Assembly (NCBI GenBank): GCA_965213885.1
Contig: OZ243919.1
Span: forward strand, 154,668-218,667
Direction of reading: 5' to 3'
From: Candidatus Poriferihabitaceae bacterium
Lineage (GTDB): Bacteria; Pseudomonadota; Gammaproteobacteria; Arenicellales; Poriferihabitantaceae
DNA length: 64,000 nucleotides
The notes under the pieces were generated by a model that was given only the letters and a program-made list of their open reading frames with translations, had not been told where the DNA came from and made no database searches. The position numbers and the translations under genes are program-made. The stretch's first letter is position 1. Every line of letters starts with the position of its first letter. Positions 54,101 through 55,665 of the stretch are shown one piece after another.

Positions 54101-54632
54101 TTTCGGGATCCGGGGCCTGCTTGCCGCCGGAGCGCTTCCAGGTGATCCGGCATTGCGCCTGGCCTGCCGGTGGCTGCTGGATCGCCAGCGCAGCGATGGT
54201 GGATGGGGTGAGCATCACAGCGGCTGCCTGTCCGGCCGATACGTCGCGCACGAGGAAAGCCAGGTCATTCAGACGGCTTGGGCCATGATCGCGCTGCTGG
54301 AGGCGGAAGATTCGAACTGGAACGCGATTTCAGAGGGCGCCCGGTTTTTGCTGGACGCACAGCATGCGGATGGGTCCTGGCCCAGGCAGGACATGGCCGG
54401 TGTCTTCTTTCGCACGGCCCTGCTGGATTACGTACTGTACCGGCAGTACTTCCCACTGCATGCGCTCGGTCTCTATGAGCAGCGTCGTCGGGTCAGGCTG
54501 GAACTGACGACTCCCGCCAGTGTGGACGTCGACACGGGAACCGCAGCGGGGGAAGATACTTCGAAGCACTGTACGGGCCGGGCCGTACGTTCGGGGTCAG
54601 CCGCAGCTATGCATCTTGCGAAACAGCGCTAG
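51168..54632 (+). CDS. Fusion protein: squalene monooxygenase (epoxidase)-like flavoprotein plus oxidosqualene cyclase
   Basis: N-terminal half: YDVVIVGAGPVGS, GEWLHPPAVRILRDLG, IGADGQASVVRKSL, LIGDAAGHYHPMTAMGMTFGFGDA. C-terminal half: SWGKFWLALLNLYDWRGVN, HPSNWYCHTRLIYMAMS, SASWDTGFALQAL, GGWHGWPVTDCTAEA, QNRDGGFGSYE, YVECTASCL, QACDGSWRGVWGVQFIYGT, QRSDGGWGEH, QHADGSWPRQDMAGVF. The frame is uninterrupted. The ATG at 51168 overlaps the stop of the CYP51 remnant (ATGA). Confidence 0.85.
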   Translation: MTRRYDVVIVGAGPVGSLCALAHARKGARVALLEANPKAAQRLAGEWLHPPAVRILRDLGVEIDVQTRKPTGKGFAIFPEDHTEPIVFPYPDGTRGLTFEHASLVSSLHEAVENNPNIELLLQARVHTVEDGQVIYSRNGNDEALTVPRVIGADGQASVVRKSLGLSISPLISSWTVGLLLTGVKLPLEGYGHVLLGGPGPMLIYRLGEHHVRLIVDVPLNHTAPRDRIGFLLDSYTDLLPESLRSAFVEALRVRNFQVAANKLRPHATYGSSHRVLIGDAAGHYHPMTAMGMTFGFGDALSLAECGDFREFTASRFRATRTPSFLAMGLYEVFADHRFEAVAVRHAIYRSARANPAFRDRTVRFLACEDTSAVRIGIAAFGTVARAVSGQIPRSHDRLAWRKARDVNQALAVRLGWLLRSIWQLYRARSHTGEIDGRTWSALAGVFPNSMPQKVRGSRPSRPQAGASIDAYPALQSATRRLLDLQGEDGDWEGEMVWCPMLTAQYVLLHHIIEKPLEPGRRLRVLRSFAQTRHEDGLWGMHEHSQPHLFVTTLVYVAARLLGLQRNDPMLGPARRFLQAEGVLGIPSWGKFWLALLNLYDWRGVNAILPELWTLPRWVAIHPSNWYCHTRLIYMAMSAIYPQRFQASVTPVIASLREELFPQGFANVDFSTAGGRLRDDDLYAPPGVWLRSGYRFARLYERYHHKRLRSRCLDSINRRIKWELQTTDHTSISPVSGILNILALWLRDPDDSDCHRALERLDGWIWEDEEHGARVTGARSASWDTGFALQALGTVPDIDGVEIAMSAGADFLRRQQIRTSFEGFREAYRNDPKGGWCFAGGWHGWPVTDCTAEAVLGLTAVQREDTDTAMLGDAVRFMMRGQNRDGGFGSYEARRSMLGLEWLNPAEMFGDSMTERSYVECTASCLAAFAACGEDLPKTTNQAVMKAIARADAWLRRSQACDGSWRGVWGVQFIYGTFFGIRGLLAAGALPGDPALRLACRWLLDRQRSDGGWGEHHSGCLSGRYVAHEESQVIQTAWAMIALLEAEDSNWNAISEGARFLLDAQHADGSWPRQDMAGVFFRTALLDYVLYRQYFPLHALGLYEQRRRVRLELTTPASVDVDTGTAAGEDTSKHCTGRAVRSGSAAAMHLAKQR

Positions 54633-55665
54633 CCGAAGTTTCGGGCCGGGCGCCATTCCCTTCTTCCTCAGTTTCCCGGGCACCGGGTTTGCGGGCCAGG
54701 AAGAAAAACATGGGCGCGAAAACACCGGACTCGCCACCTTCGACCAGGGAATCCGCCCCTGATTCAACAACCTGCTGATCTCGGCGGTGCCTTTCGGAAC
54801 CACTCGCACCCTCTCGGCGACCCGCAACACCAGATTGGTCAGGAACCGGCCCGCCGGTGTGCGCGGCATGCCTGAAAGACTGAAATCACGACCCTGCAAT
54901 GCCCGGTACCAGGGCGTTTCCGGGTCCGACTCGGCGGCAACGTCGCGACCCTCCAGGAGTTCGAACCCGGCCGCGCGAAGTGCATCGCAGACCTCCGACG
55001 TGCCGGCGATATCCGGCAGTCCGTTGCCTGTTTCAATTTCCTTCTTGATCCGCAGATGCGCTTCGTTCTGCGGATCAAAGTGTTCCGTAAGACACCACTC
55101 GTAGGGCGCAGGACGCGGAAGATCTCCCCGCATGCGGCTGTCTTGTCCGGTGCGTGGGGCATGGACTCGATGGCGATGGTGCTGTCATAGCAGCCATCGT
55201 CTTCGGGTATCTGCATGTAGTCGCCGTGAATGAATCCGCACAATGACTGGATGTCCCGGGTGTGCAGCCTGGCGCGTTCGATCTGGTAGGCGTTATTGTT
55301 GATCCCGACGAATCCGGCCCCGGAATCACGGGCCAGGTTGGACATCGGTCCCCCGACTCCGCAACCCACGTCCAGCACCCGCATCCCCGGCCCGAGGGAC
55401 AACCGGTCAGCAAGATACTTCTGGTGCCTGAGAAGCGAAGCCTTCAGGTTCTCGCCCCGCCGCCGGGGGGCAAAGTGAAAGGACCGGCCCCAGCCAAATT
55501 CGTAGAAATCGGTTGCCAGGTCGCAGTAGTGATTGACGAGCATCACATGGCGTTCCTTATCTTCGCTCCGGCATCGTGAAGTTCTGTGTATTGGGCGACC
55601 ACGGAGTTCACTTCATCCGGGGCGATGTCTCCAAGGGACCGGGACTCCGGCTGCTTGACGGGTCC
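54608..55665 (-). pseudogene. Sterol C-24 methyltransferase (ERG6/SMT-like), multiply frameshifted
   Basis: Colinear pieces lie in different minus frames: DEVNSVVAQYTELHDAG / [75 protein letters not shown] / YEWCLTEHFDPQNEAHLRIKKEIETGNGLPDI..PWYRAL.. / ADSLVEGGESGVFAPMFFFLARKPG. At least 3 frame changes. The 3' end overlaps the cyclase 3' end convergently. Confidence 0.7.

Follow-up and report, generated by a model that had tools for sequence, protein, structure and literature searches.

The window analyzed here, a stretch of 64,000 nucleotides (nt) from a Candidatus Poriferihabitaceae bacterium (contig OZ243919.1, positions 154,668 to 218,667 of the forward strand, renumbered below from 1), contains the remains of a sterol biosynthesis cluster. 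A pseudogene of sterol C-24 methyltransferase (SMT, ERG6-like) occupies positions 54607-55698 on the minus strand, measured from its GTG start codon to the reconstructed stop, and is interrupted by four insertions or deletions (indels). Convergent with it on the plus strand, at 51168-54632, lies an intact gene for a fused squalene epoxidase and oxidosqualene cyclase (SE-OSC), upstream of which are remnants of genes for a 3beta-HSD/SdmB-like protein and for CYP51. A preliminary description of this DNA, made by a model from the letters alone, had recognized the broken SMT gene and the cyclase; the work reported here concerns the identity of the gene, the nature of its lesions, and the state of the cluster to which it belongs.

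Identity and extent of the methyltransferase gene

Three-frame translation of 54560-55720 reveals all ERG6/SMT-like blocks, colinear on the minus strand, as the preliminary description had stated. The limits of the gene required adjustment: the start is the GTG at 55698, beyond the edge of 55665 first assigned, and the reconstructed stop lies at 54607-54609, one base away from its earlier placement at 54608-54610, although the accompanying statement that it falls 23 nt inside the cyclase coding region is correct.

The frame-corrected translation matches the Pfam family Sterol_MT_C (PF08498) with E = 3.3e-22 (78.8 bits, the cut-off being 21.7; profile positions 6-65 of 66) and also the Methyltransf_11 domain. 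It has 1,670 homologues, the best of which is the intact protein P0001 (353 residues, 80% identity, E = 3e-184), and PF08498 is carried by all of the matches listed. Full-length comparison with the SMTs on contigs assayed by Brown et al. 2023 (L085, L090, L092, L038) gives 64-69% identity. Because Sterol_MT_C is matched above threshold, the top homologues carry PF08498, and the gene stands convergent to an oxidosqualene cyclase (OSC) as in intact relatives, it is by homology a sterol-type SMT, and C-24 methylation of a delta-24 sterol is the activity predicted for the family. The earlier assignment to the sterol type, as opposed to the cyclopropane-fatty-acid or UbiE type, is thus borne out. 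A non-sterol class I methyltransferase of one of those two types would account for the matches of the same translation to generic families (CMAS, 5e-10; Ubie_methyltran, 1.5e-5), for NCBIfam matches that all fall far under their cut-offs, and for the nearest solved chain in the PDB, which is MitM; however, NCBIfam lacks a model for SMT, and the PDB a structure, so that neither is informative on SMT membership. Against this assignment, which is extremely improbable, stand the score of Sterol_MT_C as the best and specific match, the presence of a sterol-binding block in the second segment of the gene, a place and orientation beside the cyclase that are those of intact clusters, and the identity to the SMTs of the assayed contigs.

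Four frame segments and four indels

A set of 120 database homologues was used both as tblastn queries against the window and as the conservation set for SMT. Whereas all 120 are single uninterrupted open reading frames (ORFs), the SMT of the window is distributed over four frame segments, and the same four pieces were recovered with every query, in keeping with the earlier count of at least four segments. With P0001 as query, residues 4-48 align to 55689-55555 (frame -2), residues 49-200 to 55558-55103 (frame -1), residues 205-322 to 55109-54756 (frame -3) and residues 318-353 to 54771-54664 (frame -2). Segment A (55568-55698) encodes the N-terminus, residues ~1-45, and ends at a 5-nt deletion that is followed by a 1-nt insertion. 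Segment B (55105-55558), which ends at a 19-nt deletion, encodes the N-terminal aromatic sterol-binding block (YEFGWGxSFHF) and S-adenosylmethionine (SAM) motif I (LDVGCGxGGP), both conserved in all 120 homologues. Segment C (54757-55104) runs from YEWCLTE through PWY to the start of Sterol_MT_C and ends at a 1-nt deletion by a G-run, and segment D (54607-54756) contains FAPMFFFLARKP and a C-terminal tail that runs 23 nt into the cyclase codons.

The lesions were placed by nucleotide alignment to three intact orthologues in related loci (L001, L005 and L002), and all were read from the assembled sequence alone. Relative to these orthologues, 5 nt are lost between 55568 and 55567, an extra T is present at 55559, 19 nt are lost between 55105 and 55104, and 1 nt is lost between 54757 and 54756, beside the G-run; the net change of -24 nt explains why the first and last segments share one frame. 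The 19-nt deletion takes out PGACFAG between FRVLRP and YEW, so that the pattern LRPGGxFxxYEW is no longer found, and with it a Gly that is invariant in all 120 homologues. This stretch is presumably methyltransferase motif III, a core beta-strand of class I methyltransferases. Damage extends to substitutions: SMT deviates at 6 of the 114 columns conserved at 97% or more, compared with a mean of 1.4 for intact-homologue controls, and the replacements at conserved residues include Y to H, Y to C and T to A, the first and last of them at residues invariant in 120 of 120 sequences. The SMT gene is dead even when neither 1-nt lesion is counted.

Two ORFs, 54839-55546 and 54597-55133, jointly span most SMT motifs, and an active enzyme might in principle still be made from them, by programmed frameshifting or by complementation between two polypeptides. 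Such an enzyme would require three or four separate frame changes and would lack both motif III and the invariant Gly; its N-terminal ORF finishes with 88 out-of-frame residues, and not one of the 120 homologues is split. Residual activity of this kind is accordingly a most unlikely prospect.

The relation of SMT to the cyclase was previously described as a convergent overlap of 3' ends. The convergence is real, but the overlap exists only in the reconstructed read-through frame, whose stop falls within cyclase sense codons ahead of the cyclase TAG at 54630-54632. Since 34-38 nt separate the two genes in L001 and L002, where both are intact, the overlap is an artefact that arises only because the dead frame is read through.

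Remains of the surrounding sterol cluster

In L001 (an 11-kb contig) and L002 (a 701-kb contig) the intact order is 3beta-HSD/SdmB-like (381 residues), Rieske/SdmA-like (360), ERG24 (364), CYP51 (473) and SE-OSC (1152), with SMT and a 244-residue protein that has no Pfam match convergent to the cluster; beyond these two genes, L002 continues with PanB, molybdopterin oxidoreductase and acyl-CoA dehydrogenase. On this PanB side the window is syntenic with L002 and L005 at 88-90% nucleotide identity (blastn). A gene-by-gene inventory by tblastn and blastn against L002 and L005 found no Rieske/SdmA-like gene and no ERG24 at the window locus; in place of the full co-linear cluster of sponge symbionts the window has SE-OSC as its only intact member, and remnants otherwise. 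Since these remnants and the flanks are syntenic with L002 and L005, the locus descends from a full sterol cluster. SMT is one casualty of a cluster-wide decay, a point that escaped the preliminary description.

The 3beta-HSD/SdmB-like remnant (50296-50460, plus strand) retains its first ~55 codons together with the upstream region. A deletion of 3,445-3,459 nt, with its junction at 50460/50461, fuses it to CYP51 and has removed most of 3beta-HSD, all of the Rieske/SdmA-like gene and of ERG24, and the beginning of CYP51. The CYP51 remnant (50461-51171, plus strand) comprises residues ~96-286 and 427-473 only, and has suffered 2-nt deletions at ~50580 and ~50645 as well as a 423-nt in-frame deletion at ~51013-51025, flanked by CTGGACCG direct repeats, that takes out ExxR and the haem loop FGGGKHRCMG. 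The deletion junctions in the CYP51 region are clean.

On the other side of SMT, only the first ~51 codons of the 244-residue membrane protein, the neighbor of SMT in relatives with a predicted EBP-like fold, are left (55957-56121, plus strand). The rest of the gene is replaced by a 2.9-kb block (56086-59028) without counterpart in L002 or L005, which carries three genes, all on the minus strand: two short-chain dehydrogenases/reductases (56138-56914 and 56869-57603) and a member of the enolase/mandelate-racemase superfamily (57616-58767). A repeat search at the borders of the block found no terminal repeats and no mobile-element signature.

As a separate observation, a chimeric ORF of 291 codons (50296-51171, plus strand) begins at the start codon of 3beta-HSD, crosses the 3.45-kb junction, passes through ~60 out-of-frame CYP51 codons and ends at the native CYP51 stop, which overlaps the ATG of SE-OSC as ATGA (51168-51171). 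It stays open because the frame shift at the junction is compensated by the two 2-nt deletions. By way of this ORF the ancestral promoter region and the coupling of translation to SE-OSC may be preserved, and chance is a possible explanation as well. A promoter and terminator scan of 49300-56300 gave matches no more frequent than in shuffled sequence.

The retained epoxidase-cyclase fusion and selection on the locus

SE-OSC encodes 1154 residues from the ATG at 51168 (the listed ORF begins at the GTG at 51111) and contains the Pfam domains SE, SQHop_cyclase_N and SQHop_cyclase_C, with an NCBIfam match to osq_cycl of 1e-215. It aligns to its counterpart in L002 as a single high-scoring segment pair (HSP) of 1150 residues at 83% identity, in agreement with the earlier view that the neighboring 3.5-kb ORF is intact. 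The DCTAE, GDAAG and GAGPVG motifs are all kept, and the protein shows 2 deviations over 360 conserved columns, in line with a median of 2 among 82 homologues.

Selection was assessed from ratios of nonsynonymous to synonymous substitution (dN/dS) on branches of three-taxon comparisons (Nei-Gojobori, 300 bootstraps). For SMT the ratio is 0.26 (0.15-0.45) on the window branch and 0.12-0.23 in relatives; for CYP51 it is 0.60 (0.26-2.4) and 0.07-0.14; for SE-OSC, 0.26 (0.20-0.38) and 0.16-0.18; and for housekeeping genes, 0.09-0.15 and 0.04-0.19. CYP51 is thus clearly relaxed on the window branch and appears to have been unconstrained for longer than SMT. The SMT ratio is far under 1, from which it follows that SMT was constrained over most of the branch, and this suggests that its death is recent. 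In the order of events that we infer, demethylation would have been lost first and SMT would then have become useless; the dN/dS values are consistent with this order without proving it. SE-OSC is possibly slightly relaxed, yet clearly non-neutral.

Genuine decay and assembly error

The preliminary description had left two possibilities, a recently inactivated gene or an error-rich region of the assembly. If the latter applied, SMT would be intact in the organism and its frameshifts would be assembly or consensus errors, as might be supposed from the 1-nt deletion at 54757/54756, which adjoins a G-run, from the insertion at 55559, which is a single base, and from metagenome scans in which no second contig of this species turned up. 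Two of the SMT lesions, however, the deletions of 5 nt and 19 nt, are not homopolymer slips. The adjoining CYP51 has clean deletions of 3.45 kb and 423 nt, the second of them lying between direct repeats, the neighboring 244-residue gene and LytB are truncated, and SMT shows an excess of substitutions at invariant residues. Some 8.7 kb of adjacent coding sequence and several small genes are free of frameshifts. PanB, molybdopterin oxidoreductase, acyl-CoA dehydrogenase and the portion of GTP cyclohydrolase II included in the window each align as a single HSP at 89-96% identity, the domain of a nearby ABC ATPase is covered in full, and the reading frames of bacterioferritin, a Bfd-like protein and Fur are uninterrupted. 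Whereas 6 small indels occur in the 1.8 kb of retained SMT and CYP51, none occurs in the 3.46 kb of SE-OSC, where ~11.5 would be expected at the same rate (Poisson P(0) ~1e-5).

The locus therefore shows several independent disabling lesions of non-sequencing kinds that are confined to the sterol module, and because the damage is limited to the tailoring genes, includes lesions unlike sequencing errors and is bordered by intact neighbors, real pseudogenization is preferred to poor assembly, which we regard as improbable. Of the two possibilities first raised, recent inactivation is much the better supported, and it is very probable that the window contains a genuine, recent SMT pseudogene in a cluster of sponge-symbiont type that has lost its tailoring module and retained SE-OSC.

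Several observations weigh against this conclusion or limit it. The two 1-nt lesions in SMT, one of them beside the G-run, could be consensus errors. The lesions are without independent confirmation from metagenomes: a scan for the junction of the 19-nt deletion, with a variable gap that would admit both alleles, gave no match, and the best match in a protein-guided scan, which did retrieve contigs of Brown et al., was 77% identical, so that no contig of the same species was obtained. An exact-sequence search with the PanB of the window likewise found no record. The dN/dS of SMT on the window branch is not significantly above that of relatives, and such statistics alone are no proof of relaxed selection. 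The SE-OSC ratio on the window branch exceeds that of both relatives in 94% of bootstraps, which hints at some relaxation, and its long-term retention is not certain. Finally, a second functional SMT or CYP51 may lie elsewhere in the genome, because in another Ca. Poriferihabitaceae genome SMT is located far from the OSC cluster (L003 and L022, respectively).

Related loci and parallel decay

A scan with the SE-OSC protein of a genome set that lacks the genome of the window itself identified 80 species-representative loci, nearly all in sponge-associated metagenome-assembled genomes, from Gammaproteobacteria, Alphaproteobacteria, Nitrospirales, Binatia, Bryobacterales, Opitutales and others. 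The closest relative by SE-OSC (86% identity) is L005, on contig OZ241969.1 of another Ca. Poriferihabitaceae, a family within Arenicellales, Gammaproteobacteria. Of the 80 loci, 68 retain the complete set of four tailoring genes at full length, and 57 of the 80 have an SMT no more than 10 kb away. L060, L062 and L069 keep only C-terminal remnants of SMT (the last 50-77 residues), L073 has a frameshifted CYP51, L066 and L069 lack ERG24, and in L050 and L054 no tailoring gene is found less than 10 kb from SE-OSC. Decay of the cluster is thus a sporadically recurring event among sponge symbionts.

In L005, 3beta-HSD is split into three pieces by insertions (~1009-5674), and a molybdopterin oxidoreductase gene is interrupted by a 2.3-kb insertion (~17632-19966) with a 7-bp overlap of the flanking sequence. 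These insertions suggest that active insertion elements are present in the lineage.

The 244-residue neighbor of SMT

The protein that is truncated next to SMT in the window is intact in relatives (protein P0121; L002:8828-9562, L001:92-826 and L003:8991-9728, all on the minus strand). It is a conserved, multi-pass membrane protein whose gene is divergent from SMT. Of the 28 loci in which both genes occur, 25 have them side by side, and they have remained together even in the case of an SMT remote from the OSC cluster (L003/L004). No match was found in Pfam, NCBIfam or PDB sequences, and its 648 homologues are unnamed or labeled 'hypothetical'. A confident AlphaFold model (predicted local distance difference test, pLDDT, 86; predicted template modeling score, pTM, 0.83) has human EBP as its top two matches among PDB structures, with template modeling (TM) scores of 0.54/0.61 over 218 aligned columns, the next best match having TM of 0.25 or less. 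EBP is a sterol delta-8/delta-7 isomerase. Judged by this modeled fold, the 244-residue protein may be a hitherto unannotated bacterial sterol isomerase. EBP has been inferred to have arisen within eukaryotes (Hoshino & Gaucher 2021, PMC8237579).

Other features of the window

On the side of the locus opposite to PanB, a truncated copy of LytB/IspH (49356-49730, minus strand) retains residues 209-332 only and is 68% identical to the corresponding neighbor in L002. In L002 the gene is full and divergent from the cluster, and the protein identity of 68% compares with 89-96% for the other flanking genes; on this side ~940 nt of L002 sequence are replaced by 193 nt in the window. Farther away, a 619-residue ORF without Pfam match (33841-35700, plus strand) lies in a region of poor ORF structure (~31.8-39.7 kb) that includes the lowest GC content of the window (0.557 at 34-36 kb, compared with ~0.63 elsewhere); this region could be foreign or decaying DNA.

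Proposed history and biochemical outcome

The ancestral cluster would have carried the 3beta-HSD/SdmB-like, Rieske/SdmA-like, ERG24, CYP51 and SE-OSC genes on one strand, with SMT and the EBP-fold membrane protein downstream in convergent orientation. The 3.45-kb deletion and the further CYP51 lesions would have cost the lineage C-4 and C-14 demethylation as well as C-14 reduction, the four SMT indels C-24 methylation, and the 2.9-kb replacement the SMT-linked membrane protein, leaving the epoxidase-cyclase fusion as the only gene still under selection. As predicted from gene content, the cell could still turn squalene into protosterol, without C-4 or C-14 demethylation, delta-14 reduction or C-24 methylation from this locus; such a protosterol-only outcome would hold unless other copies of the genes exist outside the 64 kb.

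It is tentatively proposed that the locus may record more than decay, namely a selection-shaped, ordered truncation of a horizontally spread pathway, in which the demethylations at C-14 and C-4 were the first to go, methylation of the side chain disappeared later along with the EBP-fold partner, and SE-OSC was actively retained, with a change of product from tailored 24-alkyl sterols to protosterol only. Should this proposal be right, expression of SE-OSC may be kept up by the chimeric leader ORF 50296-51171, protosterol would be made by the cell or exported to the holobiont, and L050 and L054 would represent the end state of the same path.

Comparison with known systems

In vitro methylation of sterols has been demonstrated for bacterial SMTs from sponge symbionts, with activity on desmosterol in 8 of the 10 symbiont enzymes tested (Brown, Olagunju, Giner & Welander 2023, Nat Commun, PMC10070321). 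The same study reported 7,966 metagenomic SMT homologues, clusters with sdmA/sdmB, and the existence of fused SMO/OSC genes (Brown et al. 2023, PMC10070321); together with the presence of SMT in 57 of the 80 related loci, that number renders outdated the statement of the preliminary description that bacterial SMTs are rare. The SMT of the window resembles those enzymes in its combination of Methyltransf_11 and Sterol_MT_C and in clustering with sdmA/sdmB, erg24, erg11 and a fused SMO/OSC gene; unlike them, the window copy is dead, with four indels and loss of motif III.

Steroid gene clusters (CSGs) have been described from the microbiomes of Ircinia and other sponges in ten phyla, with purifying selection reported on ERG24, CYP51 and LSS (Kelly et al. 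2022, Microbiome, PMC9531527). The arrangement from which the window locus descends is that of the CSGs, with DFR/3beta-HSD-like, Rieske, ERG24, CYP51 and LSS genes on one strand and SMT1/ERG6 on the opposite strand at the 3' end, and it shares with them a spread over many phyla that suggests horizontal transfer. The window locus differs from them in its deleted ERG24 and its destroyed CYP51, with the LSS fusion as the only conserved gene. The SMT family, the sterol cluster and the SE-OSC fusion were thus already known, and only the dead SMT and the dead tailoring module with the cyclase kept are new; no paper describing such decay of a sterol cluster was found in the open-access literature.

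The effect of these findings is incremental, the gene family and the cluster having been described before. SMTs of sponge symbionts bear on the reliability of 24-alkyl steranes (e.g., 24-isopropylcholestane) as biomarkers of animals or eukaryotes, and an SMT match in a symbiont genome is no guarantee of capacity, so that counts of homologues from hidden Markov model (HMM) or BLAST searches would overcount. The dispensability of the tailoring steps in the window lineage, together with the keeping of the epoxidase-cyclase, suggests that protosterol is valuable to the bacterium or to the holobiont.

Gemmata obscuriglobus reportedly makes lanosterol and parkeol, a protosterol-only pathway. The predicted end state of the window locus would be similar, with squalene epoxidase and OSC and neither C-4/C-14 demethylation nor side-chain methylation, and it differs from that of G. 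obscuriglobus in being secondary, reached by decay of a full cluster whose relics are visible; its product is predicted only. Host-restricted bacteria are subject to pseudogene formation and to a deletion bias. The window locus shares with such decay the multiple small indels, the repeat-mediated deletions and the replacement by foreign DNA, and genes of L005 are likewise interrupted by insertions; unlike the genome-wide decay of host-restricted bacteria, however, the decay seen within the 64 kb is confined to one pathway module.

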